From the NCBI RefSeq assembly GCF_054482595.1, contig NZ_CM137008.1: 64,000 nucleotides of DNA; one strand, given 5' to 3'. Both the position numbers and the translations under genes were made by a program. Shown piece after piece: positions 25,245-53,450 of this stretch (position 1 is its first letter; every line of letters begins with the position of its first letter). The notes below the pieces were generated by a model. That model was not told where the DNA came from and ran no database searches. It saw only the letters and a program-made list of their open reading frames with translations.

Positions 25245-26408
25245 GTGGAACAGATTAATTCAAATAAAAAACATTCTAACAGAAGAAAATACTTTTCTTT
25301 ATTGGCGGTAGTTTTATTTATTGCGTTTTCAGGTGCCTATGCCTATTGGTCAATGGAATTAGAAGACATGATTAGTACAGATGACGCCTATGTCACGGGG
25401 AATGCAGATCCAATTTCTGCACAAGTCTCAGGTAGTGTCACTGTCGTTAATCATAAAGATACGAACTACGTTCGACAAGGTGACATTTTAGTTTCACTGG
25501 ATAAAACTGATGCCACTATCGCACTCAATAAAGCTAAAAATAATCTGGCAAATATTGTTCGGCAAACGAATAAACTGTACTTACAGGATAAACAATACAG
25601 TGCCGAAGTCGCTTCAGCACGTATTCAGTATCAACAATCTTTAGAAGATTATAACCGTCGTGTGCCTTTAGCGAAGCAGGGGGTTATTTCAAAAGAAACG
25701 CTGGAGCATACCAAAGATACGTTAATAAGTAGCAAAGCGGCATTGAATGCCGCTATCCAGGCTTATAAAGCGAATAAAGCTTTAGTAATGAACACACCAT
25801 TAAACCGTCAGCCACAAGTCGTGGAAGCGGCGGATGCAACCAAAGAAGCCTGGTTGGCGCTTAAACGTACGGATATTAAGAGTCCGGTTACCGGCTATAT
25901 TGCCCAGAGAAGTGTTCAGGTCGGCGAAACAGTGAGCCCCGGACAATCGTTAATGGCTGTCGTACCGGCACGTCAAATGTGGGTTAATGCCAACTTTAAA
26001 GAAACACAACTCACGGATGTACGGATTGGTCAATCGGTCAATATTATCAGCGATCTTTATGGTGAAAATGTTGTGTTTCATGGTCGGGTGACAGGGATCA
26101 ATATGGGAACCGGCAATGCGTTCTCCTTATTACCTGCACAAAATGCGACAGGGAACTGGATCAAAATCGTTCAGCGTGTACCGGTTGAAGTTTCTCTTGA
26201 TCCAAAAGAACTCATGGAACACCCCTTGCGCATTGGTTTATCGATGACTGCAACTATTGATACGAAGGACGAAGACATTGCTGAGATGCCTGATCTGGCT
26301 TCAACCGTGACCTCCATGCCTGCTTATACCAGTAAGGCTTTAGTTATCGATACCAGTCCGATAGAAAAAGAAATTAGCAACATTATTTCGCATAATGGAC
26401 AACTTTAA
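25245..26408 (+). CDS. emrK: Multidrug efflux membrane fusion protein (EmrA paralogue)
   Basis: 387 aa ORF, HlyD-family; exact start uncertain (several in-frame Met); overlaps emrY start (TAATG). Confidence 0.85.
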   Translation: MEQINSNKKHSNRRKYFSLLAVVLFIAFSGAYAYWSMELEDMISTDDAYVTGNADPISAQVSGSVTVVNHKDTNYVRQGDILVSLDKTDATIALNKAKNNLANIVRQTNKLYLQDKQYSAEVASARIQYQQSLEDYNRRVPLAKQGVISKETLEHTKDTLISSKAALNAAIQAYKANKALVMNTPLNRQPQVVEAADATKEAWLALKRTDIKSPVTGYIAQRSVQVGETVSPGQSLMAVVPARQMWVNANFKETQLTDVRIGQSVNIISDLYGENVVFHGRVTGINMGTGNAFSLLPAQNATGNWIKIVQRVPVEVSLDPKELMEHPLRIGLSMTATIDTKDEDIAEMPDLASTVTSMPAYTSKALVIDTSPIEKEISNIISHNGQL

Positions 26409-27946
26409 TGGCAATCACTAAATCAACTCCGGCACCATTAACCGGTGGGACGTTATGGTGCGTCACTATTGCATTGTCATTAGCGACGTTTATGCAAATG
26501 TTGGATTCCACTATTTCTAACGTCGCAATACCGACAATATCTGGCTTTCTGGGAGCGTCAACAGACGAAGGCACCTGGGTTATCACCTCGTTTGGCGTAG
26601 CAAATGCCATTGCGATCCCTGTTACCGGCAGGCTGGCACAAAGAATAGGCGAATTAAGGTTATTTTTACTTTCAGTCACTTTTTTTTCGCTGTCTTCCTT
26701 AATGTGTAGTTTATCGACCAATCTTGATGTTCTGATATTTTTTAGAGTCGTTCAGGGGTTAATGGCGGGGCCGTTAATTCCACTGTCACAGAGTTTATTA
26801 TTAAGGAATTATCCACCAGAAAAAAGGACATTTGCTCTGGCATTATGGTCAATGACCGTGATTATCGCTCCGATATGTGGGCCGATATTGGGCGGCTATA
26901 TTTGTGATAACTTTAGCTGGGGTTGGATATTTTTAATCAATGTCCCTATGGGGATTATCGTCCTGACATTATGCTTAACCTTACTTAAAGGAAGAGAAAC
27001 TGAGACTTCACCGGTCAAAATGAATCTACCAGGACTGACCCTGTTAGTGCTCGGTGTTGGTGGCTTGCAAATTATGCTTGATAAAGGGCGCGATCTGGAT
27101 TGGTTCAACTCGAGTACAATAATAATATTAACAGTAGTATCAGTTATTTCTCTGATCTCTTTAGTTATTTGGGAGTCGACCTCAGAGAACCCGATTCTTG
27201 ATCTCAGTTTGTTTAAGTCCCGTAATTTCACCATTGGTATAGTGAGTATCACATGCGCGTATTTATTTTACTCTGGAGCGATCGTCCTTATGCCGCAGTT
27301 ACTCCAGGAAACGATGGGGTATAATGCGATATGGGCCGGACTTGCTTATGCGCCCATCGGCATCATGCCACTATTAATTTCACCTTTGATAGGACGTTAT
27401 GGCAACAAAATAGACATGCGGTTGTTAGTGACATTTAGTTTTTTGATGTATGCGGTTTGCTATTACTGGCGTTCTGTGACATTTATGCCAACGATTGATT
27501 TTACAGGCATCATTTTGCCACAGTTTTTCCAGGGATTCGCCGTTGCCTGTTTCTTTTTACCCTTAACAACGATTTCGTTTTCAGGGTTGCCAGATAATAA
27601 ATTTGCCAATGCCTCGAGTATGAGTAATTTTTTTCGTACCTTGTCAGGATCAGTTGGTACGTCGTTGACAATGACGCTGTGGGGACGACGCGAATCGTTA
27701 CACCATAGTCAGTTGACAGCAACCATCGATCAATTTAACCCCGTGTTTAATTCATCGTCACAAATTATGGATAAATACTATGGTTCGCTTTCAGGAGTTC
27801 TTAATGAAATTAATAATGAAATAACCCAGCAGTCACTTTCTATTTCTGCAAATGAGATTTTCCGTATGGCGGCTATTGCTTTTATCTTACTTACGGTTTT
27901 GGTGTGGTTTGCGAAACCGCCGTTTACAGCGAAAGGCGTTGGGTGA
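26408..27946 (+). CDS. emrY: MFS multidrug efflux pump (EmrB paralogue)
   Basis: 512 aa ORF with the multi-helix layout expected of a 14-TMS MFS exporter; recognised EmrY. Confidence 0.9.
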   Translation: MAITKSTPAPLTGGTLWCVTIALSLATFMQMLDSTISNVAIPTISGFLGASTDEGTWVITSFGVANAIAIPVTGRLAQRIGELRLFLLSVTFFSLSSLMCSLSTNLDVLIFFRVVQGLMAGPLIPLSQSLLLRNYPPEKRTFALALWSMTVIIAPICGPILGGYICDNFSWGWIFLINVPMGIIVLTLCLTLLKGRETETSPVKMNLPGLTLLVLGVGGLQIMLDKGRDLDWFNSSTIIILTVVSVISLISLVIWESTSENPILDLSLFKSRNFTIGIVSITCAYLFYSGAIVLMPQLLQETMGYNAIWAGLAYAPIGIMPLLISPLIGRYGNKIDMRLLVTFSFLMYAVCYYWRSVTFMPTIDFTGIILPQFFQGFAVACFFLPLTTISFSGLPDNKFANASSMSNFFRTLSGSVGTSLTMTLWGRRESLHHSQLTATIDQFNPVFNSSSQIMDKYYGSLSGVLNEINNEITQQSLSISANEIFRMAAIAFILLTVLVWFAKPPFTAKGVG

Positions 27947-29399: not shown

Positions 29400-29630
29400 T
29401 TAGATGATAAATGACAGCAGGAATGTGCCCGCCAGAGCGACGACTGAAGCGATAAATGTCGCTGTCGTATAGTATTTAAATGTTTCATTGAGCGTAGCGC
29501 CGCAATATTGCTTCACCAGCCAGAAAAGCGAGTCCGTAACGATCGTGCAGCCAATTGCGCCTGAACCGATAGCAATCGCAATAATTTCCGGGCTGATGTC
29601 GGGATACAGCGGCAGCACAATGATCCATAT
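29400..29630 (-). pseudogene. dsdX: 3' remnant of dsdX (D-serine permease, GntP family)
   Basis: Only about 72 C-terminal codons (…[27 protein letters not shown]) remain; in-frame stop immediately upstream of 29630; the rest of dsdX and all of dsdC are absent. Confidence 0.7.
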
Positions 29631-29848
29631 TTATATTTTCTTCTCCAGGTTGGCGATGCCAGTTGGCATGTTTTTCTTACTTGCCTATATGGTTACTCGT
29701 TGGCGAGAACAGAGGCGGAATTGGGGACAATTGGCCGGGAATTATTGTTATTTTTTATTGTATTGCCGTGTCAGGTGATAGGGCGTTGGATCTCGCCAGT
29801 GACGTCTGTTTCTGCTACAGTGCCCGTTTTACGACAAACGGCTTGGGT

Positions 29849-30844
29849 ATGGCTTCATTAAAGGATGTCGCACGCCTGGCGGGAGTGTCGATGATGACAG
29901 TCTCCCGGGTGATGCATAATGCAGAATCTGTGCGTCCTGCAACGCGTGACCGCGTATTGCAGGCAATCCAGACCCTGAATTATGTTCCTGATCTTTCCGC
30001 CCGTAAGATGCGCGCTCAAGGACGTAAGCCGTCGACTCTCGCCGTGCTGGCGCAGGACACTGCTACCACTCCTTTCTCTGTTGATATTCTGCTTGCCATT
30101 GAGCAAACCGCCAGCGAGTTCGGCTGGAATAGTTTTTTAATCAATATTTTTTCTGAAGATGACGCTGCCCGCGCGGCACGTCAGCTGCTTGCTCACCGTC
30201 CGGATGGCATTATCTATACTACAATGGGGCTGCGACATATCACGCTGCCTGAGTCTCTGTATGGTGAAAATATTGTATTGGCGAACTGTGTGGCGGATGA
30301 CCCAGCGTTACCCAGTTATATCCCTGATGATTACACTGCACAATATGAATCAACACAGCATTTGCTCGCGGCGGGCTATCGTCAACCGTTATGCTTCTGG
30401 CTACCGGAAAGTGCGTTGGCAACAGGGTATCGTCGGCAGGGATTTGAGCAGGCCTGGCGTGATGCTGGACGAGATCTGGCTGAGGTGAAACAATTTCACA
30501 TGGCAACAGGTGATGATCACTACACCGATCTCGCAAGTTTACTCAATGACCACTTCAAATCGGGCAAACCAGATTTTGATGTTCTGATATGTGGTAACGA
30601 TCGCGCAGCCTTTGTGGCTTATCAGGTTCTCCTGGCGAAGGGGGTACGTATCCCGCAGGATGTCGCCGTAATGGGCTTTGATAATCTGGTTGGCGTCGGG
30701 CATCTGTTTTTACCGCCGCTGACCACAATTCAGCTTCCACATGACATTATCGGGCGGGAAGCTGCATTGCATATTATTGAAGGTCGTGAAGGGGGAAGTG
30801 TGACGCGGATCCCTTGCCCGCTGTTGATCCGTTGTTCCACCTGA
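29849..30844 (+). CDS. cscR: Sucrose operon repressor (LacI/GalR family)
   Basis: ORF 29663..30844; N-terminal HTH begins at MASLKDVARLAGVSMMTVSRV (29849), giving 331 aa. Confidence 0.85.
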   Translation: MASLKDVARLAGVSMMTVSRVMHNAESVRPATRDRVLQAIQTLNYVPDLSARKMRAQGRKPSTLAVLAQDTATTPFSVDILLAIEQTASEFGWNSFLINIFSEDDAARAARQLLAHRPDGIIYTTMGLRHITLPESLYGENIVLANCVADDPALPSYIPDDYTAQYESTQHLLAAGYRQPLCFWLPESALATGYRRQGFEQAWRDAGRDLAEVKQFHMATGDDHYTDLASLLNDHFKSGKPDFDVLICGNDRAAFVAYQVLLAKGVRIPQDVAVMGFDNLVGVGHLFLPPLTTIQLPHDIIGREAALHIIEGREGGSVTRIPCPLLIRCST

Positions 30845-30851
30845 TATTATG

Positions 30852-32285
30852 CTAACCCAGTTGCCAGAGTGCTCCATGTTGCACCACAGCCACTCCGTGG
30901 GAGGCATAAAGCGACAGTTCCCGTTCTTCTGGCTGCGGATAGATTCGACTACTCATCACCGCTTCCCCGTCGTTAATAAATACTTCCACGGATGATGTAT
31001 CGATAAATATCCTTAGGGCGAGCGTCTCACCCTGCGGGAGGAGAATACTACGGTAGCCGTCTAAATTCTCGTGTGGGTAATACCGCCACAAAACAAGTCG
31101 CTCAGATTGGTTATCAATATACAGCCGCATTCCAGTGCCGAGCTGTAATCCGTAATGTTCGGCATCACTGTTCTTCAGCGCCCACTGCAACTGAATCTCA
31201 ACTGCTTGCGCGTTTTCCTGCAAAACATATTTATTGCTGATTGTGCGGGGAGAGATAGATTGATGCTGCTGGCGTAACGACTCAGCTTCGTGTACCGGGC
31301 GTTGTAGGAGTTTGCCATTGCTCTCTGATAGCTCACGCGCCAGCGTCATGCAGCCTGCCCAGCCTTCACGTTTTGAGGGCATTGGCGATTCCCACATATC
31401 CATCCAGCCGATAACAATACGCCGACCATCCTTCGCTAAAAAGCTTTGTGGTGCATAAAAGTCATGCCCGTTATCAAGTTCAGTAAAATGCCCGGATTGT
31501 GCAAAAAGTCGTCCTGGCGACCACATTCCGGGTATTACGCCACTTTGAAAGCGATTTCGATAACTGTATCCCTCGGCATTCATTCCCTGCGGGGAAAACA
31601 TCAGATAATGCTGATCGCCAAGGCTGAAAAAGTCCGGACATTCCCACATATAGCTTTCACCCGCATCAGCGTGGGCCAGTACGCGATCGAAAGTCCATTC
31701 ACGTAATGAACTGCCGCGATAAAGCAGGATCTGCCCCGTGTTGCCTGGGTCTTTCGCCCCGACTACCATCCACCATGAGTCGGCTTCACGCCACACTTTA
31801 GGATCGCGGAAGTGCATGATTCCTTCTGGTGGAGTGAGGATCACACCCTGTTTCTCGAAATGAATACCATCCCGACTGGTAGCCAGACATTGTACTTCGC
31901 GAATTGCATCGTCATTACCTGCACCATCGAGCCAGACGTGTCCGGTGTAGATAAGTGAGAGGACACCATTGTCATCGACAGCACTACCTGAAAAACACCC
32001 GTCTTTGTCATTCTCGTCTCCTGGCGCTAGCGCAATAGGCTCATGCTGCCAGTGGATCATATCGTCGCTGGTAGCATGTCCCCAGTGCATTGGCCCCCAG
32101 TGTTCGCTCATCGGGTGATGTTGATAAAACGCGTGATAACGATCGTTAAACCAGATCAGGCCGTTTGGATCGTTCATCCACCCGGCAGGAGGCGCGAGGT
32201 GAAAATGGGGATAGAAAGTGTTACCCCGGTGCTCATGAAGTTTTGCTAGTGCGTTTTGCGCTGCATGCAATCGAGATTGCGTCAT
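30852..32285 (-). CDS. cscA: Sucrose-6-phosphate hydrolase / invertase (GH32)
   Basis: GH32 motifs (WMNDPNG, FRDPKV, WECPD); ORF extends to 32294, start taken at MTQSRLHAAQ. Confidence 0.85.
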   Translation of the reverse strand: MTQSRLHAAQNALAKLHEHRGNTFYPHFHLAPPAGWMNDPNGLIWFNDRYHAFYQHHPMSEHWGPMHWGHATSDDMIHWQHEPIALAPGDENDKDGCFSGSAVDDNGVLSLIYTGHVWLDGAGNDDAIREVQCLATSRDGIHFEKQGVILTPPEGIMHFRDPKVWREADSWWMVVGAKDPGNTGQILLYRGSSLREWTFDRVLAHADAGESYMWECPDFFSLGDQHYLMFSPQGMNAEGYSYRNRFQSGVIPGMWSPGRLFAQSGHFTELDNGHDFYAPQSFLAKDGRRIVIGWMDMWESPMPSKREGWAGCMTLARELSESNGKLLQRPVHEAESLRQQHQSISPRTISNKYVLQENAQAVEIQLQWALKNSDAEHYGLQLGTGMRLYIDNQSERLVLWRYYPHENLDGYRSILLPQGETLALRIFIDTSSVEVFINDGEAVMSSRIYPQPEERELSLYASHGVAVVQHGALWQLG

Positions 32286-32319
32286 TTTAATCATCCTGGT
32301 TAAGCAAATTTGGTGAATT

Positions 32320-32331
32320 GTTAACGTTAAC
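32320..32331. promoter_or_regulatory. Candidate CscR operator (perfect palindrome GTTAACGTTAAC), copy 1
   Basis: 12 bp perfect palindrome in the cscA/cscK divergent promoter; identical copy 64 bp downstream. Confidence 0.5.
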
Positions 32332-32364
32332 TTTTATAAAAATAAAGTCCCTTACTTTCATAAA

Positions 32365-32380
32365 TGCGATGAATATCACA
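32365..32380. promoter_or_regulatory. CRP-like site in the csc divergent promoter
   Basis: TGCGA-tgaata-TCACA resembles the TGTGA-N6-TCACA consensus with one mismatch. Confidence 0.35.
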
Positions 32381-32383
32381 AAT

Positions 32384-32395
32384 GTTAACGTTAAC
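32384..32395. promoter_or_regulatory. Candidate CscR operator (perfect palindrome GTTAACGTTAAC), copy 2
   Basis: Identical 12 bp palindrome; central CG as in many LacI-family operators. Confidence 0.5.
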
Positions 32396-32500
32396 TATGA
32401 CATTTTGTGATCGAATATGCATGTTTTAGTAAATCCATGACGATTTTGCGAAAAAGAGGTTTATCACTATGCGTAAGTCAGATGAATTTAAGGGAAAAAA

Positions 32501-42583: not shown

Positions 42584-44727
42584 TGGAAATGGCATCAGCG
42601 TTTACTCTTAATGTTCGTCTGGACAACATTGCTATCATCACCATCGACGTACCGGGTGAGAAAATGAATACCCTGAAGGCGGAGTTTGCCTCGCAGGTGC
42701 GCGCCATTATTAAGCAACTCCGTGAAAACAAAGAGTTGCGCGGCGTGGTCTTTATTTCCGCGAAACCAGACAACTTTATCGCCGGAGCTGACATCAACAT
42801 GATCGGCAACTGCAAAACGGCGCAAGAAGCGGAAGCTCTGGCGCGGCAGGGCCAACAGTTGATGGCGGAGATTCATGCTTTGCCCATTCCGGTTATCGCG
42901 GCTATTCATGGCGCTTGCCTGGGTGGTGGGCTGGAGTTGGCGCTGGCGTGCCACGGTCGCGTTTGTACTGACGATCCTAAAACGGTGCTCGGTTTGCCTG
43001 AAGTACAACTTGGATTGTTACCCGGTTCAGGCGGCACCCAGCGTTTACCGCGTCTGATAGGCGTCAGCACAGCATTAGAGATGATCCTCACCGGAAAACA
43101 ACTTCGGGCGAAACAGGCATTAAAGCTGGGGCTGGTGGATGACGTTGTTCCGCACTCCATTCTGCTGGAAGCCGCTGTTGAGCTGGCAAAGCAGGATCAT
43201 CCATCTTCCCGCCCTCTACCTGTACGCGAGCGTATTCTGGCGGGGCCGTTAGGTCGTGCGCTGCTGTTCAAAATGGTCGGCAAGAAAACAGAACACAAAA
43301 CTCAAGGCAATTATCCGGCGACAGAACGCATCCTGGAGGTTGTTGAAACGGGATTAGCGCAGGGCACCAGCAGTGGCTATGACGCTGAAGCACGGGCGTT
43401 TGGCGAACTGGCGATGACGCCACAATCGCAAGCTTTGCGTAGTATCTTTTTTGCCAGTACGGAAGTGAAGAAAGATCCCGGTAGTGATGCGCCGCCTGCG
43501 CCATTAAACAGCGTGGGAATTTTAGGTGGTGGCTTGATGGGCGGCGGTATTGCTTATGTCACTGCTTGTAAAGCGGGGCTTCCGGTCAGAATTAAAGATA
43601 TCAACCCGCAGGGCATAAATCATGCGCTGAAGTACAGTTGGGATCAGCTGGAGGGCAAAGTTCGCCGTCGTCATCTCAAAGCCAGCGAACGTGACAAACA
43701 GCTGGCATTAATCTCCGGAACGACGGACTATCGCGGCTTTGCCCATCGCGATCTGATTATTGAAGCTGTGTTTGAAAATCTCGAATTGAAACAACAGATG
43801 GTGGCGGAAGTTGAGCAAAATTGCGCCGCTCATACCATCTTTGCTTCGAATACGTCATCTTTACCGATTGGTGATATCGCCGCTCACGCCACGCGACCTG
43901 AGCAAGTTATCGGCCTGCATTTCTTCAGTCCGGTGGAAAAAATGCCGCTGGTGGAGATTATTCCTCATGCGGGTACATCAGCGCAAACCATCGCCACTAC
44001 GGTAAAACTGGCGAAAAAACAGGGCAAAACGCCCATTGTCGTGCGTGACAAAGCCGGGTTTTACGTCAATCGCATCTTAGCGCCTTACATTAATGAAGCT
44101 ATCCGCATGCTGACCGAAGGTGAACGGGTAGAGCACATTGATGCCGCGCTAGTGAAATTTGGTTTTCCGGTAGGTCCAATCCAACTTTTGGATGAGGTAG
44201 GAATCGACACCGGGACTAAAATTATTCCTGTACTGGAAGCCGCTTATGGAGAACGTTTTAGCGCGCCTGCAAATGTTGTTTCTTCAATTTTGAACGACGA
44301 TCGCAAAGGCAGAAAAAATGGTCGGGGTTTCTATCTTTATGGTCAGAAAGGGCGTAAAAGCAAAAAACAGGTCGATCCTGCCATTTACCCGCTCATTGGC
44401 GCACAAGGGCAGGGGCGACTCTCCGCACCGCAGGTTGCTGAACGGTGTGTGATGTTGATGCTGAATGAAGCAGTACGTTGTGTTGATGAGCAGGTTATCC
44501 GTAGCGTGCGTGACGGGGATATTGGTGCGGTATTTGGCATTGGTTTTCCGCCATTTCTCGGTGGACCGTTTCGCTATATCGATTCTCTCGGCGCGGGCGA
44601 AGTGGTTGCAATAATGCAACGACTGGCCACGCAGTATGGTTCACGTTTTACCCCTTGCGAGCGTTTAGTCGAGATGGGTGCGCGTGGGGAAAGTTTTTGG
44701 AAAACAACTGCAACTGAACTGCAATAA
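42583..44727 (+). CDS. fadJ: Fatty-acid oxidation complex alpha subunit (enoyl-CoA hydratase / 3-hydroxyacyl-CoA dehydrogenase)
   Basis: 714 aa ORF with crotonase and NAD-binding ([10 protein letters not shown]) domains; start overlaps fadI stop (TAATG). Confidence 0.9.
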
Positions 44728-44929
44728 GAAGGTCAAAGCTATATGAATCCGCGCTGAATGGCGGAGTGTTGGTCAAAATGCAAACGCATATTGACTATAC
44801 TTACGCCATTGAGGTAAAAAACAGCGTTTCATTCGGTGAATGGATAAGGCACAATGCCGGCCACCGTTTTCTTTCTCTGGTTTCAGATGAAAGAAAACGG
44901 GCGAATCTGGTTAACAAAAGCGGTGCAAT

Positions 44930-45415
44930 ATGCAAGTTTTTATCATGCGTCACGGCGACGCAGCCCTCGATGCCGCCAGTGATTCGGTTCGTCCTCTGAC
45001 TACTAATGGTTGTGACGAATCTCGCCTGATGGCGAACTGGCTGAAAGGTCAAAAAGTGGAAATCGAACGCGTTCTGGTGAGCCCGTTCCTGCGAGCCGAG
45101 CAAACACTGGAGGAAGTAGGGGATTGTCTGAACCTGCCTTCCAGTGCAGAAGTTCTGCCGGAGTTAACGCCCTGCGGCGATGTTGGTCTGGTCAGTGCCT
45201 ATTTGCAGGCGTTGACCAATGAAGGTGTTGCTTCGGTGTTGGTTATCTCCCACTTACCGTTAGTTGGGTATCTGGTCGCCGAGTTATGTCCGGGCGAAAC
45301 GCCGCCTATGTTTACCACCTCGGCCATTGCCAGCGTCACGCTTGATGAAAGCGGAAACGGCACATTCAACTGGCAGATGAGCCCGTGTAATTTGAAGATG
45401 GCGAAAGCTATCTGA
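44930..45415 (+). CDS. sixA: Phosphohistidine phosphatase
   Basis: 161 aa ORF with the RHG motif (MQVFIMRHGDA). Confidence 0.9.
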   Translation: MQVFIMRHGDAALDAASDSVRPLTTNGCDESRLMANWLKGQKVEIERVLVSPFLRAEQTLEEVGDCLNLPSSAEVLPELTPCGDVGLVSAYLQALTNEGVASVLVISHLPLVGYLVAELCPGETPPMFTTSAIASVTLDESGNGTFNWQMSPCNLKMAKAI

Positions 45416-45428
45416 TTTGTTTGAAAAA

Positions 45429-45467
45429 ATGCCCGATGTAAGCTGTACATCGGGCATTTGTCTTTTT
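45429..45467. terminator. Rho-independent terminator after sixA
   Basis: atgcccgatgta-agct-gtacatcgggcat stem-loop followed by TTGTCTTTTT. Confidence 0.6.
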
Positions 45468-46058
45468 GCAATAGTATAAATTCACTAAAAACCCTTCACG
45501 GAGTTGGTATGCTGCGATGATGATTTCATCGCACTCTTTCCTCTGCTTCCCTATTAATTTCTGATGAAATGAGACTAAGTTGTAATATATTCTTACAAAT
45601 TATAAAGCTAATGGAACAATTAACAGTAAAAAAGAAATGATATTTTTGTGTCTTGATTTAATATTGTTTGTGATGCTTTAATATTATATCTTCAAAAAAT
45701 ACAATTTCAAAATTAATCTAAGATCGTCTTTTTTGTATACACTTCCCATAAATTTTAATTATGTAAAAGATGTTTTCTAAGCATTTTATTTGTTTTTTAT
45801 AAGTAAACTCTCAAAATTTCACCTTTTTGATTATATGTTAAGTGCTCCTTAATTCACTGTTAAGTAAATATAATTTGAAACAATAAAGACAAAATATCAC
45901 CATCCGCCCACACCAAAGAATATCTTCTTATGCGACCTATTTTCTTGTTAGTTAGATCGGATAGCTTATTCAATGGCTGGGTATAAATAATTGCTATTGA
46001 CTGAATCAATGTATTGCAATGTTTATATTTTTAATTATTTATGGTTTAAGGACAAATA

Positions 46059-46622
46059 ATGAGTAAGTTTGTAAAAACAGCTATTGCTGCAACAATGGTA
46101 ATGGGTGCGTTCGCTTCTACTTCAACAATCGCCGCTGGCAACAACGGTACAGCTCGTTTTTACGGCACCATTGAAGATTCCCCGTGCTCCATCGTTCCTG
46201 ATGATCACAAACTGGAAGTGGATATGGGTGACATTGGTTCAGGGATCCTGAAAAACAACGGGACTTCTACACCGAAAGCTTTCCAGATCCATCTGCAAGA
46301 TTGTGTGTTTGACACCCAGACAACGATGACCACTACCTTCACGGGTAACGCGTCTTCTACCAACAGCGGCAATTACTACACCATTTACAATACCGATACC
46401 GGTGCGGCATTTAACAATGTCAGCCTGGCCATTGGTGACGCTCAGGGGACCTCTTACAAAAGCGGCGCGGGTATCGACCAGAAAATCGTAAAAGATACGG
46501 CGACCAACAAAGGCAAAGCGAAGCAGACGCTGGACTTTAAAGCCTGGCTGGTGGGCGCTGCTGATGCGCCAGATTTAGGTAATTTTGAAGCCAACACGAC
46601 CTTCCAGATTACTTATCTCTAA
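46059..46622 (+). CDS. yfcV: Fimbrial major subunit (chaperone-usher pilus)
   Basis: 187 aa ORF with signal peptide and C-terminal fimbrial beta-strand (TFQITYL). Confidence 0.85.
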   Translation: MSKFVKTAIAATMVMGAFASTSTIAAGNNGTARFYGTIEDSPCSIVPDDHKLEVDMGDIGSGILKNNGTSTPKAFQIHLQDCVFDTQTTMTTTFTGNASSTNSGNYYTIYNTDTGAAFNNVSLAIGDAQGTSYKSGAGIDQKIVKDTATNKGKAKQTLDFKAWLVGAADAPDLGNFEANTTFQITYL

Positions 46623-46628
46623 GTGATA

Positions 46629-46658
46629 CCCCCATAGCTTTCGGGCTATGGGGTTTTT
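46629..46658. terminator. Intra-operon hairpin between yfcV and the usher gene
   Basis: ccccatagc-tttcg-ggctatgggg followed by TTTTT; a pilin/usher attenuator arrangement typical of fimbrial operons. Confidence 0.55.
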
Positions 46659-46691
46659 AAATGGAATTCGCGCAAATTATAATAATTACGG

Positions 46692-49343
46692 ATGGATACG
46701 TGTATGCCTGACCATTCTCTTTTCCGACTGCGGGTGCTTCCCTGCTGCATTGCGCTGGCAATGTCAGGGTGTTATGTCAATGCCTGGGCTGAAGATGAAA
46801 TTCAGTTTGATTCCCGTTTTCTGGAGTTAAAAGGCGACACAAAAATCGATCTGAAGCGATTTTCCAGCCAGGGATATGTCGAACCTGGTAAATACAATTT
46901 ACAGGTTCAACTAAATAAACAGCCGCTGGCGGAAGAATACGATATTTACTGGTACGCCTCTGAGAACGATGCCAGTAAAACCTATGCCTGCCTGACGCCT
47001 GAACTGGTCGCGCAGTTTGGCTTAAAAGAGGATGTGGCAAAAAACCTGCAATGGATCCACGACTGCAAATGCCTGAAACCCGGTCAACTGGAAGGCATTG
47101 ATATTAAAGCTGACCTGAGTCAGTCAGCGTTAGTCATTTCATTACCCCAGGCTTACCTTGAATATACCGACATCAACTGGGATCCACCTTCACGCTGGGA
47201 TGACGGTATTTCTGGTTTAATTGCTGACTACAGTATTACCGCCCAGACACGACATGAAGAAAATGGCGGGGATGACAGCAATGAAATCAGCGGCAACGGA
47301 ACGGTTGGGGTTAACCTCGGCGCATGGCGTCTGCGAGCCGACTGGCAGACTGACTACCAGCACAGCAAAAGCAATGATGACGATGTTATCAACGGTGATG
47401 ACACGCAAAAAAACTGGGAGTGGAGCCGCTACTACGCCTGGCGGGCCTTACCGTCGCTAAAAGCCAAACTTGGCCTTGGCGAAGACTACCTTAATTCTGA
47501 TATTTTCGACGGCTTTAACTACGTGGGTGGCAGTATCAGCACCGACGATCAAATGTTGCCGCCGAATCTGCGCGGCTATGCGCCGGATATCTCCGGCGTG
47601 GCGCACACCACCGCGAAAGTGACCGTCAGCCAGATGGGCCGCGTGATTTACGAAACGCAGGTTCCGGCGGGGCCGTTCCGCATCCAGGATCTTGGCGATT
47701 CTGTCTCCGGTACACTGCACATCCGCATTGAAGAACAGAACGGCCAGGTGCAGGAATATGACATCAACACCGCCTCGATGCCGTTCCTGACCCGCCCCGG
47801 CCAGGTGCGCTATAAGCTGATGATGGGCCGCCCGCAGGAGTGGGGGCATCATGTTGAGGGCGGTTTCTTCTCCGGCGGCGAAGCTTCATGGGGGATTGCC
47901 AACGGCTGGTCGCTGTACGGCGGGGCGCTGGCAGATGAACACTATCAGTCGGCGGCGCTTGGCGTCGGTCGCGACCTGTCTGTCTTTGGCGCAGTCGCCT
48001 TTGATATCACCCACTCGCATACCCGCCTGGATAAAGAGACCGCCTACGGTAAAGGTTCACTGGACGGTAACTCGTTTCGCGTGAGCTATTCCAAAGACTT
48101 CGATGAACTGAACAGCCGCGTCACTTTTGCCGGATACCGCTTCTCGGAAGAGAACTTCATGACCATGAGCGAGTATCTCGATGCCAGCGACAGCGAAATG
48201 GTGCGCACCGGCAACGACAAAGAGATGTACACCGCAACCTATAACCAGAACTTCAGGGATGCCGGTGTGTCTGTTTATCTCAACTACACCCGCCATACCT
48301 ACTGGGATCGCGACGAACAGACCAACTACAACGTCATGCTCTCGCACTACTTCAACCTGGGCAGTATCCGCAATATGAGCATTTCCATGACCGGATACCG
48401 CTACGAGTATGATAACCAGGCCGATAAAGGTGTGTACATATCGCTCAGTATGCCGTGGGGTGACAGCAGCACCATCAGCTATAACGGCAACTACGGCAGC
48501 GGTTCGGACAGCAGCCAGGTGGGGTATTTCAGCCGTGTCGATGACGCAACTCACTACCAGCTGAACGTGGGGACCAGTGACAAACACTCCAGCGTTGACG
48601 GCTATTACAGCCACGATGGCTCGCTGGCGCAGGTGGACCTCAGCGCCAACTACCATGAAGGACAGTACACCTCGGCAGGTATTTCCTTACAGGGCGGCGC
48701 GACGCTGACCGCGCAGGGTGGCGCGCTCCACCGTACCCAGAATATGGGCGGTACGCGCCTGCTGATTGATGCCGATGGCGTGGCTGGTGTTCCGGTGGAA
48801 GGAAATGGCGCGGCGGTTTACACCAATATGTTCGGTAAGACCGTGGTGGCAGACGTCAACAACTACTACCGCAATCAGGCCTATATCGACCTTAACAACC
48901 TGCCGGAAAACGCCGAAGCCACCCAGTCCGTGGTGCAGGCGACGCTTACCGAAGGAGCCATTGGCTACCGTAAGTTTTCGGTTATCAGCGGGCAAAAAGC
49001 GATGGCGGTATTGCGCCTGCAAGATGGCAGTCATCCGCCGTTTGGCGCGGAAGTGAAAAATGACAACGCGCAGAACGTCGGTCTGGTTGATGATGACGGC
49101 AACGTCTACCTCGCGGGTGTCAAACCTGGCGAGCATATGATCGTTTCATGGGGCGGTGTGGCCCACTGTGATATTCATCTGCCGGACCCACTGCCAGCCG
49201 ATCTGTTCAATGGCCTGTTACTACCATGTCAACAAACAGGGGCGATATCTCCTTCGATGCCTCATCAAATTAAGCCGGTGATCCAGGAGCAGACCCAGCA
49301 GGTGATGCCAACGGAAGCGCCGGTATCGGTATCCGCCAATTAA
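46692..49343 (+). CDS. yfcU: Fimbrial outer-membrane usher (intact)
   Basis: 883 aa uninterrupted ORF with usher-like features; exact start uncertain (alternative Met at 46704). Confidence 0.85.
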   Translation: MDTCMPDHSLFRLRVLPCCIALAMSGCYVNAWAEDEIQFDSRFLELKGDTKIDLKRFSSQGYVEPGKYNLQVQLNKQPLAEEYDIYWYASENDASKTYACLTPELVAQFGLKEDVAKNLQWIHDCKCLKPGQLEGIDIKADLSQSALVISLPQAYLEYTDINWDPPSRWDDGISGLIADYSITAQTRHEENGGDDSNEISGNGTVGVNLGAWRLRADWQTDYQHSKSNDDDVINGDDTQKNWEWSRYYAWRALPSLKAKLGLGEDYLNSDIFDGFNYVGGSISTDDQMLPPNLRGYAPDISGVAHTTAKVTVSQMGRVIYETQVPAGPFRIQDLGDSVSGTLHIRIEEQNGQVQEYDINTASMPFLTRPGQVRYKLMMGRPQEWGHHVEGGFFSGGEASWGIANGWSLYGGALADEHYQSAALGVGRDLSVFGAVAFDITHSHTRLDKETAYGKGSLDGNSFRVSYSKDFDELNSRVTFAGYRFSEENFMTMSEYLDASDSEMVRTGNDKEMYTATYNQNFRDAGVSVYLNYTRHTYWDRDEQTNYNVMLSHYFNLGSIRNMSISMTGYRYEYDNQADKGVYISLSMPWGDSSTISYNGNYGSGSDSSQVGYFSRVDDATHYQLNVGTSDKHSSVDGYYSHDGSLAQVDLSANYHEGQYTSAGISLQGGATLTAQGGALHRTQNMGGTRLLIDADGVAGVPVEGNGAAVYTNMFGKTVVADVNNYYRNQAYIDLNNLPENAEATQSVVQATLTEGAIGYRKFSVISGQKAMAVLRLQDGSHPPFGAEVKNDNAQNVGLVDDDGNVYLAGVKPGEHMIVSWGGVAHCDIHLPDPLPADLFNGLLLPCQQTGAISPSMPHQIKPVIQEQTQQVMPTEAPVSVSAN

Positions 49344-49365
49344 CAACGTGATTAAGGAATGATCC

Positions 49366-50118
49366 ATGACGAATCTATTTTGCTCTGCCAGAACGGCCGC
49401 AACGACGCTGGCGTTACTGATAACTGCCGCCAGCCTGTCAGCACAGGCCTCTGTCACGCCGGACCGTACACGCCTGATTTTTAACGAAAGTGATAAATCA
49501 ATCAGCGTCACGCTGCGCAATAACGACCCGAAAATGCCGTATCTGGCACAAAGCTGGATGGAAGATGAACAGGGTAACAAGATTAGCTCGCCACTGACGG
49601 TACTGCCGCCGGTGCAGCGCATCGATTCCATGATGAACGGTCAGGTGAAGGTACAGGGCATGCCGGATATCAACAAGCTGCCTGCCGACCGCGAGAGCGT
49701 GTTCTATTTCAACGTGCGTGAGATCCCGCCGAAATCGAACAAACCCAACACGTTACAGATTGCGCTGCAAACGCGCATCAAGCTGTTCTGGCGACCAAAA
49801 GCGCTGGAAAACGTCAGCATGAAAAATCCGTGGCAGCATAAGGTGACCTTAACCCGCAGCGGCCAGGAGTTTACAGTCAATAACCCGACGCCGTACTTCG
49901 TGGTTATCAGTAACGCCAGCGCGCAGAAAAACGGCAATCCGGCAGCGGGATTTTCTCCCATGGTGATATCGCCAAAAACCTCCGTACCGTTAAAGGTCAA
50001 AATGGATAGCGTCCCGGTGCTGACCTACGTCAACGACTATGGCGCACGGATGCCGCTGTATTTTAAATGTGGCGGCGATACCTGCCAGGTGGACGCAGAG
50101 CAGAGCCGCAAAGGCTGA
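49366..50118 (+). CDS. yfcS: Periplasmic fimbrial chaperone (PapD-like)
   Basis: 250 aa ORF with signal peptide and PapD-fold motifs. Confidence 0.85.
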   Translation: MTNLFCSARTAATTLALLITAASLSAQASVTPDRTRLIFNESDKSISVTLRNNDPKMPYLAQSWMEDEQGNKISSPLTVLPPVQRIDSMMNGQVKVQGMPDINKLPADRESVFYFNVREIPPKSNKPNTLQIALQTRIKLFWRPKALENVSMKNPWQHKVTLTRSGQEFTVNNPTPYFVVISNASAQKNGNPAAGFSPMVISPKTSVPLKVKMDSVPVLTYVNDYGARMPLYFKCGGDTCQVDAEQSRKG

Positions 50119-50133
50119 TGCCGGGAGAGCCAT

Positions 50134-50625
50134 ATGAAAATAATTTATCTGGCGGTGTCGGGCATTGCGCTGCTGGCCTGGAATGTCGCCAGTGCAGAAA
50201 CGAAACCCGTCAACCTGGAACTCAGAGTCCTGGTGGATGCGCCGCCGCCCTGTACCGTGACCGGTAGTGCAGTGGAGTTTGGCGATGTGCTGATCGCCAG
50301 TATCGATGGCAACAATTACCGCCAGAACGCGGGCTATACCCTCGACTGTTCGGGGCGTCTGTCAGACGATCTGCGGATGCAACTGAAAGGCACCACCACC
50401 ACCGTGAACGGTGAAACTGTGCTGGATGCAGGCATTGCCGGGTTTGGCATCCGTATCGAAAACGCCGCCGATAACTCCCTTTTTTCCATTGGTGAAAATA
50501 ACTGGACGCCTTTTGCATTTAACTCTCTGCCGCAGCTCAAGGCGGTGCCGGTAAAACAGAACGGCGTACAGCTCGCGCCAGCGGAATTTAACGCCAGTAT
50601 GACCATGGTGGTGGATTACCAATGA
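50134..50625 (+). CDS. yfcR: Fimbrial minor subunit
   Basis: 163 aa ORF with signal peptide and Cys pair; synteny. Confidence 0.75.
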   Translation: MKIIYLAVSGIALLAWNVASAETKPVNLELRVLVDAPPPCTVTGSAVEFGDVLIASIDGNNYRQNAGYTLDCSGRLSDDLRMQLKGTTTTVNGETVLDAGIAGFGIRIENAADNSLFSIGENNWTPFAFNSLPQLKAVPVKQNGVQLAPAEFNASMTMVVDYQ

Positions 50626-51107
50626 AACGACTCGCACTTTTGCTGATTTGTGGTGTATGCGGGGGGGCTCTGGCCTCACCGGATATCACCTTTCACGGTA
50701 CGCTGGTGTCGCCGCCTGCCTGCACTATCAACGAAGGCCAGACTATCGAGCTGGAGTTTCGTGATGTGCTTATCGACAGCATTGATGGCAACTACGCCCG
50801 CCAGGAGGTGCCGTACACCATAAAATGTGACTCCGACGTTCGCAATGAGGCCTGGGAGATGACGCTCACCTGGACGGGCACACAAACCAGCTACAACGAC
50901 GCGGCCATCGAAACCGATGTTCCGGGATTCGGTATTCAGCTTTTGCAGAACGGGCAACGTTTTCAGCTTAATACCCCGCTGACCATCAACGCCACGGATT
51001 TGACACAAAAGCCGAAGCTGGAGGCAGTACCGGTAAAAGCGAGCGGCGCCACATTAAATGACGGCGCATTTTCAGCGTACGCAACATTACGGGTGGATTA
51101 TCAATGA
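50622..51107 (+). CDS. yfcQ: Fimbrial minor subunit
   Basis: 161 aa ORF with signal peptide; 4 bp overlap (ATGA) with yfcR. Confidence 0.75.
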   Translation: MKRLALLLICGVCGGALASPDITFHGTLVSPPACTINEGQTIELEFRDVLIDSIDGNYARQEVPYTIKCDSDVRNEAWEMTLTWTGTQTSYNDAAIETDVPGFGIQLLQNGQRFQLNTPLTINATDLTQKPKLEAVPVKASGATLNDGAFSAYATLRVDYQ

Positions 51108-51628
51108 AAACAAAGACCGAAAGTATGCTCCTGGCAAGCCTGCTGCTCGCCGCCAGCGGAACCACGCTGGCGGCGGACAATCTGCATTTTTACGGCAATT
51201 TGTTAAGTAAATCCTGCACCCTGGTGGTGGATGGCGAACTGCTGGCGGAAGTGCATTTCCCCACTGTCAGCAGTCAGGATTTAATGGTTGCGGGGCAGTC
51301 TTCCAGGGTGCCGGTAGTCTTTAAGCTGAAAGACTGCAAAGGTCCGGCGAATTACCAGGTCAAAATCACCCTGACCGGGACGGAAGACAGCGAACAGCCA
51401 GGATTTCTGGCGCCTGACCCAGCATCGGACGCGCAGGGGATAGGGATTGGCATGGAAAAGTCTGACGGAACTTGGGTGCCGCTTAATGACACAACTGGCG
51501 CGACGTTCAATCTCAGTATCGGCGCGAATAACCTCAATTTTAATGCTTGGTTGCAGGCGAAAAGCGGTCGTGATGTAACCTCCGGTGACTTCACCGCCAG
51601 CCTGACCGCCACTTTTGAGTATATTTAA
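51104..51628 (+). CDS. yfcP: Fimbrial minor subunit
   Basis: 174 aa ORF with signal peptide; 4 bp overlap with yfcQ. Confidence 0.75.
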   Translation: MKTKTESMLLASLLLAASGTTLAADNLHFYGNLLSKSCTLVVDGELLAEVHFPTVSSQDLMVAGQSSRVPVVFKLKDCKGPANYQVKITLTGTEDSEQPGFLAPDPASDAQGIGIGMEKSDGTWVPLNDTTGATFNLSIGANNLNFNAWLQAKSGRDVTSGDFTASLTATFEYI

Positions 51629-51629
51629 G

Positions 51630-52487
51630 ATGAAAATAATACGACGCTTTTTGGGCTTCCTGACACTGCTGTTATTTAGCCTGGGTGCCCACGCCGAGGA
51701 TTTTATGATGTATACCCCGATGGGAGTCCCAGGCCCTTTCATGAAATCTGTATTTATGCTGGAAGTGGTGACCTCAACAGGAGTATATACAGGGGAGTAT
51801 GCGACCAGTGATCCATGGATGCTCACCCTTGGTAATTTGACTCTTGTAAGCTGGAATGGGCCGGCTGGTATACCGGCTCCGACAATTAATCTAGTGAAAA
51901 CATACCAGTTACCGGATTCAACATGCCCCGGCGTTACCAGTGTGCCTTCTACCAGCCCTTACGGTTGGGATTGTTATGAGGCTGATTTGAAAGTTTCAGT
52001 AACGGGCGATGTTCAAGGATGCCCGTGGTTGGTATCAAGCCAGATTACCACTAAAGATACGGGACAAACAGGGGCAACATATACAGGGCCAAAAACTCAT
52101 AATTCTTCCTGCCCGTCAATCCCACTGGCGTCATATGATGTTTCCTGGGATGAGAATATGGTTATTCATAAAAAAACATTAAATCTGAAATCAACAGACG
52201 CCGTAGGGGGAATCATTGAGACAACCCTGTCGACCTATTTAATGGAAAGTCAGAAGCTGTGTGACGGTAGCGATTTTACTGATCCTCGCGGGGCTAATTG
52301 CCGTTTTGTTTCGCAGATGATCACCTTTACAGCATCAGGATGCGATGATGCCAAAGTGACGGTGACGCCGGTTCCGCATCCGATTACCGATAGGCAACTG
52401 CATGATATTATGGTGCGCGTAGATACCAGCGTATTGCAGCCCATTGATTCAACGTGTCGCTTCCAGTATGTGCTGAATATGCTTTAG
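51630..52487 (+). CDS. yfcO: Fimbrial tip/adhesin-like protein
   Basis: ORF 51615..52487 begins at TTG; the ATG at 51630 (MKIIRRFLGFLTLLLFSLGAHA signal peptide) is the more plausible start. Confidence 0.7.
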   Translation: MKIIRRFLGFLTLLLFSLGAHAEDFMMYTPMGVPGPFMKSVFMLEVVTSTGVYTGEYATSDPWMLTLGNLTLVSWNGPAGIPAPTINLVKTYQLPDSTCPGVTSVPSTSPYGWDCYEADLKVSVTGDVQGCPWLVSSQITTKDTGQTGATYTGPKTHNSSCPSIPLASYDVSWDENMVIHKKTLNLKSTDAVGGIIETTLSTYLMESQKLCDGSDFTDPRGANCRFVSQMITFTASGCDDAKVTVTPVPHPITDRQLHDIMVRVDTSVLQPIDSTCRFQYVLNML

Positions 52488-52488
52488 C

Positions 52489-52733
52489 ACGCCGCATCCG
52501 GCAGTTGTGCGCTGATGCCTGATGTGACGCTGGCGCGTCTTATTAGACCTACAATTGAATCTTAAAGTATTGAATTTGCAAGTTTTATTGCTGATGCCTG
52601 ATGCGACGCTGTCGCGTCTTATCAGGCCTACAATTGAATCACAATCTATTGAATTTGCACACTTTGTAGGCCGGATAAGGCGTTCACGCCGCATCCGGCA
52701 TTCGGTGCCAGTGCCACATCCGGCACTTAATAT
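52489..52733. repeat. REP/BIME cluster with internal tandem duplication
   Basis: Repeated GCCTGATGCGACGCTG..CGCGTCTTATCAGGCCTAC and GCCGGATGCGGCGTGAACGCCTTATCCGGCCTAC units between convergent yfcO and smrB. Confidence 0.8.
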
Positions 52734-53285
52734 TCACGGCAATTCCGGCGGCAGCCACTCTTCCACTTCAATCAACACCAGCAACGCCGCATCACCACCG
52801 TACTCTTTCGGCGCCTGGTGAAATGCCATCACATGTGGATGTTGCGCCAGCCACAGCGGCGTTTGCTGTTTCAAAATATGCTTACCATGCCCATGCATCA
52901 CACAGGCACAAAACACATGTTCACGGCGGCAGGCGGCAATCAATGCGCCCAGTTCCTGCTTGGCCTGCAGCTGCGTCAGACCGTGTAAATCCAAAAACAA
53001 TTCCGGCGAATAATCACCGCGTCGCAACTTTTTCGCCTCAAAATGACTCACATCCGGGCGAACATATTTAACCGGACCTTCGGTATTTAATAACGGCTGA
53101 AACTCATCGGAGAAATAATGGCTGGCATCAGCCTGCTCCTGGATCAAGCGTTTCACCGGCACTTCGCTGACTTTTTTACGCTGTGGTCGGTGGACAATCG
53201 TGTCCTGCTTAATCTTGCGAGTCCCCGCCATCAACTGGCGAAACAGAGCCTGGTCCTCCTCGCTAAGTGTTGTTTTCTTTTTCAT
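52734..53285 (-). CDS. smrB: Smr-domain protein (ribosome rescue endonuclease)
   Basis: 183 aa ORF with C-terminal Smr domain (LDLHGLT...VMHGHG). Confidence 0.85.
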
Positions 53286-53450
53286 TTATCTGTCTCTATT
53301 TCTAATTTTCCTACAGTTTACCCGACTCGTAGCACAATCGATCGTTTTAAACGTATTTTTCCTCACTCACCGCGCGTGAATGCTGATTTATCGTCATCTT
53401 CATGGCAAACTAGCCGCCGAAATTATTGCGATCATGCCCTGGAGGAATAC

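Follow-up and report, generated by a model that had tools for sequence, protein, structure and literature searches.

Positions 46,059 to 52,487 of the window (the whole stretch of DNA analysed, 64,000 nucleotides of contig NZ_CM137008.1) very probably encode the Yfc fimbrial operon, a chaperone-usher system of the pi class, in the form of a rare nested-mosaic allele. The Yfc operon is a known, catalogued core system of E. coli, in which the usher is usually intact. Its sole unusual feature here is the allele itself, a rare mosaic with a strongly diverged putative tip-adhesin domain.

Seven consecutive genes, yfcV-U-S-R-Q-P-O, lie open on the + strand with zero internal stops (Table 1). A first-pass annotation of this DNA, made from the sequence alone, had described a yfcVUSRQPO operon in which every gene is open, and all seven ORFs were verified at the coordinates it gave. 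The operon is flanked by sixA and smrB, the canonical chromosomal site of Yfc, and its gene order is that of K-12. The downstream genes overlap or are tightly packed, and the sole long spacer separates yfcV from yfcU. The host is an E. coli that differs little from strain XH990, which matches positions 45400-52700 at 100% and in which the segment is annotated, between sixA and smrB, as yfcV, an usher, yfcS, three fimbrial proteins and a StfH/YfcO adhesin.

Complete domain sets were recognized for the usher, the chaperone and the four pilins, and for the seventh product, a DUF2544 protein of the StfH/YfcO family. As in chaperone-usher operons generally, a three-domain usher lies next to a PapD-like chaperone, with pilin subunits flanking both. 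The chaperone YfcS matched PapD_N (1.6e-36) and PapD_C (2.6e-11), and YfcV, YfcR, YfcQ and YfcP matched the StfA, StfE, StfF and StfG models and other fimbrial models of NCBIfam (E = 1e-29 to 1e-49). N-terminal signal peptides were recognized on the pilin subunits by visual inspection of the translations, and YfcV shares 90% amino acid identity with its K-12 counterpart. The scheme of Wurpel types these systems by locus position and usher relatedness; the window operon occupies the sixA-smrB site and its usher groups with YfcU, a grouping based on amino acid identity to K-12 and on the NF011812 cut-off rather than on a tree. The pilin-usher-chaperone order fits the pi clade, the clade itself being taken from the literature, in which Yfc is assigned to the pi class (PMC5216030).

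Table 1. Features of the yfc locus and its boundaries (positions in the window)
Feature	Position	Strand	Description	Evidence
sixA intrinsic terminator	45427..45459	+	perfect 14-bp stem with T-rich tail; upstream limit of the variable locus	
yfcV leader/promoter region	45470..46058	+	589 bp, 26.7% GC	
Candidate sigma-70-like sites	45564-45705	+	about 350-490 nt upstream of the yfcV ATG	
yfcV	46059..46622	+	major pilin, 187 aa, signal peptide, StfA-like	profile match
Conserved hairpin and T5	46630..46658	+	terminator-like element between pilin and usher genes	
yfcU	46704..49343	+	outer-membrane usher, 879 aa from the conserved ATG	PapC_N, Usher and PapC_C all full length
yfcS	49366..50118	+	periplasmic chaperone, PapD_N and PapD_C, StfD-like	
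yfcR	50134..50625	+	minor subunit, StfE-like, yfcQ paralogue	
yfcQ	50622..51107	+	minor subunit, StfF-like, 4-nt overlap with yfcR	
yfcP	51104..51628	+	minor subunit, StfG-like, 4-nt overlap with yfcQ	
yfcO	51630..52487	+	putative tip adhesin, DUF2544/StfH-YfcO family, 285 aa	
REP/BIME cluster	52488..52733	.	between yfcO and convergent smrB; downstream limit of the variable locus	

The usher was the gene to which the first-pass annotation had given most weight. The 883 codons it reported are indeed those of the longest ORF (46692..49343), but the upstream ATG of this ORF is missing from K-12 and other alleles, and the conserved, RefSeq-annotated start at 46704 gives 879 aa. The protein comprises PapC_N (residues 34-179), Usher (198-758, full model) and PapC_C (769-825), exceeds the cut-off of NCBIfam NF011812 (1865.6 bits vs 972), far above chance, and is 91% identical to K-12 YfcU over 879 residues. 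A search for a hidden defect in the window usher found none: the Pfam domains are full length, identity to the ushers of strains 20R2R and E1V33 is 98%, and the overlooked frameshift that the first-pass annotation had allowed for does not occur.

The first-pass annotation had correctly taken the K-12 usher to be disrupted: K-12 yfcU is annotated as pseudogene b4661, and the annotation of K-12 DH10B divides the gene into yfcT and yfcU. The comparison with the K-12 locus, proposed at first pass, showed that K-12 yfcU has one in-frame TAG, at codon 579, where the window has TAC (48435..48437). A frameshift in K-12 yfcU was rejected, the gene being colinear with a single nonsense codon. An exact-match search of 5426 complete E. 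coli genomes with the K-12 61-mer around this codon found the TAG form in 363 and the TAC form in 1366. All other yfcU alleles sampled are annotated as intact ushers, and Wurpel et al. (2013) found yfc to be core-associated and the sole cluster intact in all 36 genomes surveyed (PMC3559732). Because the TAG version is in the minority and yfc was intact in 36 of 36 genomes, the intact usher is ordinary. We conclude that the K-12 amber codon is a lineage-specific, minority lesion and that an intact usher is the species norm. K-12 is the exception, and statements based on it that Yfc is non-functional should therefore not be generalized. That the uninterrupted usher sets this strain apart from E. 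coli in general, with an unusual capacity to form Yfc fimbriae, was suggested by the K-12 pseudogene and the DH10B annotation; given the genome counts, the intact sampled alleles and the 36-genome survey, this reading is largely refuted and highly improbable, and the importance first attached to the open usher is not supported.

The allele is where the operon departs from the norm. At position ~45440, identity to K-12 drops from 97% to ~65% or lower, and it recovers after ~52734. At the nucleotide level it is ~97% in the flanks, 83-85% in yfcVUS and 62-73% in yfcRQPO, and the REP/BIME cluster that closes the variable locus is mostly missing at the same site in K-12. In a sliding-window comparison, the yfcVUS module was 93-100% identical to strain 20R2R. 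We take this strain to be O157-like, and hence refer the module to an O157-like family. This proximal module ends at a breakpoint around the end of yfcS, at ~50050-50120. Beyond it, the yfcRQP module is common to only a few dozen genomes, at 92-98% identity, and the distal module was found at an identity of at least 99% in 17 of the 5426 genomes. Judged from these alignments, the yfc allele is a rare, strongly divergent nested mosaic. Published work describes the yfc genes as highly diverse, with trees that disagree with MLST (PMC4850163). The divergent mosaic allele had been overlooked at first pass.

Divergence is greatest in YfcO. Its start was corrected to the ATG at 51630 (285 aa), rather than the TTG at 51615; the protein matches DUF2544 (1.5e-70), and the NCBIfam models gave no match to it. 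It shares 46-49% identity with the K-12 protein. Within yfcO, the N-terminal half (~51662-52210 in the DNA) is hypervariable, in contrast to a conserved C-terminal half: over 43 homologues, conservation is 38% in the N-half vs 69% in the C-half. AF2 predicts a protein of two beta domains (pLDDT 84), and the N-domain is less than about 50% identical to common alleles.

The sharp steps in identity at ~45440 (97% to below 65%) and ~52734 are of the kind that import from another species would leave, and Escherichia sp. E1V33 carries a close proximal module (usher identity 98%). Yet the operon has a GC content of 52.6%, typical of E. coli, all alleles share one locus, one gene order and the same flanks, and the nearest relatives of its YfcO (84% and about 74% identity) are all labelled E. 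coli. Moreover, a closer distal module was absent from 10 loci of other-species representatives (E. albertii, E. whittamii, Pseudocitrobacter, Citrobacter and Serratia), the best YfcO there reaching 49% identity, and a foreign origin of the distal module was rejected on this ground. We thus regard import of the divergent allele as very unlikely, compared with an old polymorphism shuffled by intraspecies recombination. We tentatively suggest that the locus may be a three-tier recombination mosaic, in which yfcVUS (assembly), yfcRQP (tip fibrillum) and the YfcO N-domain reassort independently and the N-domain perhaps binds a distinct receptor. If so, the YfcO receptor in this strain may differ from those of the K-12, O157 and B2 Yfc variants, and Yfc, instead of being a single 'cryptic' fimbria, would serve the whole species as a platform for polymorphic adhesins.

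The first-pass annotation had placed an AT-rich leader of ~590 bp upstream of yfcV, and its dimensions stand: at 589 bp and 26.7% GC, the segment is the lowest in GC of all 589-bp windows in the 64 kb (mean 48.9%). The last ~200 bp (45862-46058) are conserved between alleles, Shine-Dalgarno AAGGA included. A consensus promoter scan of the region was uninformative (11 matches vs 9.8 expected). Silencing by H-NS had also been proposed. The AT-richness is extreme, as this proposal supposed, and the K-12 sixA-yfcV spacer is flagged for H-NS, carries an RNA polymerase (RpoD) binding peak and is classed as a 'promoter island' (PMC3946193, PMC3661553). The distal leader of the window allele is just 45-54% identical to K-12, so that the extension of H-NS binding to this allele is an inference; by analogy, H-NS silencing of the window leader is plausible. 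GATC sites occur at 45722 and 45955, 233 bp apart and in about the number expected by chance, and no papI/papB-like regulator ORF was found in the leader, the longest ORF there being 49 aa on the opposite strand. These observations do not support a Dam/Lrp switch of the Pap type in the leader, nor a small regulatory gene there.

A hairpin with a T-tract had been noted between pilin and usher genes at 46629..46658. We located its stem at 46630..46653 (10 pairs, 6 of them GC, with a UUCG loop), followed by TTTTT at 46654..46658. It is predicted to fold at -17.6 kcal/mol (z = -4.1), and equally stable folds were obtained in 0 of 200 shuffles. When seven distinct spacers were aligned, 95.9% of cells were paired, against 39-46% in slid controls, and four pairs had changed on both sides; the covariation score of 0.208 (0.109 in shuffles) was reached by 0 of 500. 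Compensatory changes keep the hairpin paired in Escherichia species and in Pseudocitrobacter, a pattern in the stem that is consistent with purifying selection. It is a real RNA element. A search of the whole window against Rfam at the gathering threshold returned tRNA-Arg alone, with no known RNA family in leader or spacer.

As to its role, the hairpin is probably a partial terminator or a 3' stabilizer. In the window allele, the GC-rich stem-loop is directly abutted by a U-tract, the layout of an intrinsic terminator. In most other alleles, however, the T-tract is weak or absent (UAUUU, GAUUU, UUAUU; none in E. albertii), and the conserved function may for this reason not be termination. Of the attenuator first proposed, the conserved hairpin with its compensatory changes is borne out, and the T-tract is not a general feature. 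That the stem is conserved and the T-tract is not would also suit an RNA 3'-end stabilizer or processing barrier for the yfcV mRNA, or a full terminator combined with an internal promoter. Under the latter version, yfcUSRQPO would be transcribed from a candidate TTTAAA-16-TATAAT at 46656-46683, a 10-of-12 match directly 3' of the hairpin. This site is not kept in K-12-type spacers, where AAGAAT replaces TATAAT, promoter-like matches occur at chance frequency, and the T5 abutting a strong GC-rich stem in the window is the classical arrangement of an intrinsic terminator. We consider these alternatives to an attenuator rather unlikely, although such a role and that of an attenuator could coexist. 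For Pap, Baga et al. (1985, 1988) reportedly described a hairpin or terminator behind the major pilin gene; in the literature searched, there was no usable open-access statement on a post-pilin terminator in pap. A precedent for pilin excess is found in type 1 fimbriae, where fimA mRNA is ~8-fold more abundant than fimI and 12-fold more than fimC (PMC10673952).

Taken as an attenuated fimbrial operon, the locus could work as follows. Transcription would start in the AT-rich leader, normally under H-NS silencing, and the hairpin with its T5 would end or stabilize most transcripts past yfcV, so that pilin mRNA would exceed usher and chaperone mRNA. YfcS would chaperone the subunits, and YfcU would assemble them by donor-strand exchange. 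By analogy with Pap and Fim, YfcO would come first, at the tip, then YfcP, YfcQ and YfcR as tip fibrillum or adaptors, and YfcV as the shaft; the variable YfcO N-domain would set receptor specificity. The operon might instead, though open, have lost its function in this strain or be silenced for good, a cryptic relic. The leader has the look of an H-NS-silenced region, and passages of the 36-genome survey describe yfc as cryptic in laboratory conditions (PMC3559732). We find this unlikely in view of seven full-length frames with complete domains, the compensatory changes that keep the hairpin paired, and the yfcPQU transcripts reported in the literature for B2 UPEC in human urinary tract infection. 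Likewise, a study of an APEC yfcO mutant, as cited in PMC8069529, points to a role in adhesion, adherence reportedly being lost.

The significance of the open usher is small, this being the usual state of a catalogued core fimbrial operon. The allelic mosaicism is extreme and densest in the half of YfcO that putatively binds the receptor. It has a bearing on yfcV as a marker of uropathogens and on the definition of the Yfc receptor.

Among known systems, the yfc operons of K-12 (yfcOPQRSUV, b2332-b2339, b4661), CFT073 and O157:H7 share the locus, seven-gene order and domains of the window operon, and the AT-rich leader and post-pilin hairpin also occur in K-12 and other E. coli. K-12 differs in the amber codon of its usher and in lacking the downstream BIME. 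The Stf operon of Salmonella enterica (stfACDEFGH) is the counterpart, with one-to-one best NCBIfam matches to StfA, the PRK15284 usher subfamily and StfD/E/F/G, and RefSeq calls the product of the last window gene a StfH/YfcO-family adhesin. However, the subunit and chaperone scores of the window fall below the Stf equivalog cut-offs (StfD, for example, 332.6 vs 447), and we therefore place the operon in the Escherichia orthologue group and not in Stf. P (Pap) pili, the archetype of the pi clade, have the same order of major pilin, usher, chaperone and minor subunits, with the adhesin last. In contrast to pap, the window has no PapH-like gene between pilin and usher and no papI/papB, its GATC pair is not at the Pap spacing (~102 bp there vs 233 bp), and the YfcO fold shows no match to PapG. 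Type 1 fimbriae (fimAICDFGH) belong to the gamma1 clade, with the chaperone gene before the usher and an invertible switch at the promoter, and the lectin domain of FimH is unrelated to DUF2544. They share with Yfc assembly by the chaperone-usher pathway, and their major-subunit mRNA exceeds the mRNAs of downstream genes, as proposed for Yfc (fim data, PMC10673952).

The yfc fimbrial operon (yfcVUSRQPO, 46059..52487, + strand) lies between sixA and smrB in flanks close to E. coli K-12 (MG1655), with 97.4% identity over fadJ–sixA and 96.7% over smrB–aroC. Identity to K-12 collapses just past the sixA terminator (~45440) and returns at smrB (~52734); in between it is 83–85% for yfcV, yfcU and yfcS and 62–73% for yfcR, yfcQ, yfcP and yfcO, with the YfcO protein at 46–49%. 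From the leader through yfcS the locus is 93–100% identical to strain 20R2R and Escherichia sp. E1V33, and identity to both is down to 50–65% from ~50050–50120 onwards. Three other E. coli (TB06052, PapM-32-1 and EC974) are 92–98% identical over yfcRQP, and in two of them, TB06052 and EC974, identity drops back to 57–79% over the first part of yfcO (51662–52210) and is 88–94% over the second half. By these stepwise drops against other alleles, three or more segments make up the locus, a nested mosaic; the first-pass annotation had overlooked the rare mosaic nature of this allele.

The distal module (yfcRQPO, 50134–52487) was found at an identity of at least 99% in 17 of 5426 genomes, at 90–95% in 2 and at 80–90% in 35. 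Among the 17 carriers, which are from humans, poultry, pig, pangolin and fish, is O157:H16 Santai. No closer module was found in 10 loci from other species representatives, which include E. albertii, E. whittamii, Pseudocitrobacter, Citrobacter and Serratia. The closest YfcO clusters in a collection of 5.8 billion proteins were at 84%, ~74% and ~50%, labelled E. coli. Across 43 homologues, conservation is 38% in the N-terminal half of YfcO (residues 23–165) and 69% in the C-terminal half, and an AlphaFold2 model consists of two beta-rich domains (pLDDT 84, pTM 0.72). We consider YfcO a putative adhesin because of its last-gene position, its variable N- and conserved C-terminal domains, its family name and an APEC mutant study cited for this role (Li et al. 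2016, as cited in PMC8069529). Ren et al. (2016) reported high yfc nucleotide diversity, gene trees in conflict with MLST and strains from which yfcRQPO was apparently “absent” (PMC4850163); the allelic diversity of yfc was therefore already known in outline. The rare allele itself is already public, as machine-annotated genomes, and its mosaic structure together with the diverged YfcO N-domain is the sole mildly interesting aspect of the locus.

An ORF listing over 44000–54500 returned seven consecutive, uninterrupted plus-strand ORFs, confirming the first-pass observation that all seven genes are open, with the same coordinates; the interpretation attached to it is partly supported by what follows. 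The 883-codon usher frame is open, but its conserved start lies downstream at ATG 46704 (879 aa), because the upstream ATG is missing in K-12 and other alleles. The yfcO frame is likewise open, but its start was moved to ATG 51630 (285 aa); homologues start MK..R. The usher scored 1865.6 bits against its NCBIfam subfamily (cut-off 972). From the usher onwards, successive genes lie 22 and 15 nt apart, then overlap twice by 4 nt, and the last two are 1 nt apart, a tight packing that suggests translational coupling, and the yfcV–yfcU spacer (81 nt) is the only long one. Yfc is an already known system, a fimbria that the literature assigns to the pi class (PMC5216030). Within it, yfcR and yfcQ (50134–51107) are tandem paralogues, with segments 73–94% identical at a constant spacing of ~480 nt and a repeat that takes in the gene junctions GGTGGATTAC/TCAATGAAA; the pair mirrors StfE/StfF.

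Family matches and positions of features in and around the yfc locus
Feature	Position	Strand	Description
yfcV to yfcP (six genes)		+	best NCBIfam matches one-to-one: StfA, PRK15284 usher subfamily, StfD, StfE, StfF, StfG
Usher yfcU		+	PapC_N, Usher, PapC_C, each full length
Chaperone yfcS		+	PapD_N + PapD_C
YfcO		+	Pfam DUF2544, E = 1.5e-70
Hairpin	46630..46653		stem CCCCAUAGCU / GGCUAUGGGG, UUCG loop, then U5
REP/BIME cluster	52488–52733		between yfcO and convergent smrB
Sucrose-utilisation cluster	29400–35250		beside tRNA-Arg (35179–35250) and DUF4942 gene fragment
343-aa hypothetical protein	37700–38731	-	between mlaA and fadL

The stretch 45400–52700 matches E. coli XH990, a urine isolate from China, at 100%; its RefSeq annotation gives, from sixA to smrB, yfcV, a fimbrial usher, yfcS, three fimbrial proteins and a StfH/YfcO-family adhesin. 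Over the first 45 kb a single SNP and a single 1-bp indel separate the window from XH990, and the window thus comes from a near-identical strain. At ~26372, in the 3' end of emrK (about 25245–26408), the window reads GAAAAAGAAATTAG and XH990 GAAAAAGAATTAG; emrK is annotated “frameshifted” in XH990 and its frame is open to the end in the window, which could be a homopolymer difference of the sequencing-error type or a real repair. A further SNP lies at 26731. The XH990 annotation, from which the gene names are taken, gives the sucrose cluster a LacI-type regulator, cscA, a kinase and an MFS transporter; dsdX is a 219-bp remnant adjoining dsdA, and the whole resembles the csc insertion known from the argW/dsd site. 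The low-GC segment that encodes the 343-aa protein (about 30% GC) ranks second in the window for AT content; the product is acidic, rich in Asn/Asp, and contains the internal repeat ...IDNQEPIK... The REP/BIME cluster holds two 70-nt units (52511–52580 and 52590–52659, 89% identical) and three GCCGCATCCGGCA motifs; the cluster has dozens of matching sites per E. coli genome, and in K-12 most of it is missing here.

The first-pass annotation took the K-12 usher to be disrupted, and the comparison bears this out: in MG1655, yfcU is annotated as pseudogene b4661, and in alignment it carries a single in-frame TAG at codon 579, within the barrel domain; the corresponding codon of the window is TAC (48435..48437). 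A frameshift as the K-12 lesion was ruled out, as the gene is colinear with that of the window and the mutation is a nonsense change (TAG for TAC). We searched 5426 complete E. coli genomes with a 61-mer centred on this codon. The exact TAG version occurs in 363, laboratory K-12 derivatives being among the matches listed, and the exact TAC version in 1366; other matching genomes have extra substitutions, and in ~2400 the yfcU allele is too divergent for any 61-mer match. An intact usher is annotated in every non-K-12 allele fetched, and Wurpel et al. (2013) described yfc as core-associated and as the sole operon intact in all 36 genomes examined (PMC3559732). The uninterrupted usher is therefore genuine but ordinary. 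In the related allele of TB06052 (6001–6491 of its locus), the frameshift annotation falls on yfcR and not on the usher; sporadic yfc inactivation therefore strikes different genes across lineages.

The leader (45470–46058) is AT-rich, as first described, and its 26.7% GC is the minimum of any 589-bp window across the 64 kb. Neither a credible ORF nor an Rfam family was found in it. A Pap-type switch is not supported, as 233 bp separate the two GATC sites; the proximal one (45955) is common to the window and K-12. The last 200 bp ahead of the yfcV ATG are kept across alleles (78% identity to K-12), whereas the distal leader is not conserved (45–54%). Conservation of 45862–46058 points to a 5' UTR with a regulatory role, or to a putative binding site. 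Conserved blocks in this segment, across divergent alleles, include TTCAATGGCTGGGTATAAA and GCTATTGACTGAATCAATGTATTGCAATGTTTATA. In the K-12 sixA–yfcV spacer, genomic SELEX gave a peak for RpoD holoenzyme together with an H-NS flag, and a promoter TTGAAA-17-TATAGT is predicted (PMC3946193) that maps to 383 nt upstream of the ATG; the spacer is also among H-NS-associated “promoter islands” (PMC3661553). H-NS silencing can thus reasonably be inferred for the window's allele. The operon is not always silent, since transcripts of yfcPQU have been detected in B2 uropathogens infecting humans (PMC4128348).

The hairpin proposed as an attenuator starts 7 nt past the yfcV stop codon (-17.6 kcal/mol, z = -4.1; 0 of 200 shuffles as stable) and is present in every orthologous yfcV–yfcU spacer collected, E. 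albertii and Pseudocitrobacter included. Its loops vary among alleles, and substitutions in the stem are compensatory: one allele has C-G for U-A, another has U-A for C-G, the closing pair switches from U.G to G.U, and E. albertii has G.U for A-U. Over 7 distinct sequences, a small sample of related sequences, pairing holds in 95.9% of cells, 4 of 11 pairs are altered on both sides, and the covariation score is 0.208 vs 0.109 in shuffles (reached by 0 of 500); slid controls pair at only 39–46%. These alignments clearly point to selection on the structure. The attenuator proposal is partly supported, by the conserved hairpin. Conservation does not extend to the U-tract, which is U5–U6 in the window's allele family and one other, UAUUU, GAUUU, UUAUU or AUUUU elsewhere, and missing in E. 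albertii. Right 3' of the hairpin, 20 nt before the usher ATG, lies a promoter-like TTTAAA-16-TATAAT (sigma-70-like, 10 of 12; 46656–46683), which is present in the window's allele family, degraded in K-12-type spacers and not conserved; such matches occur at chance frequency. Our reading is that the conserved function would be a stable 3' stem on the yfcV mRNA, and in the window's allele the hairpin should, as predicted, also be a partial intrinsic terminator. Either role would yield an excess of pilin mRNA. An excess of like kind has been described for papA. In the fim system, fimA mRNA is 8- to 12-fold over fimI and fimC (PMC10673952).
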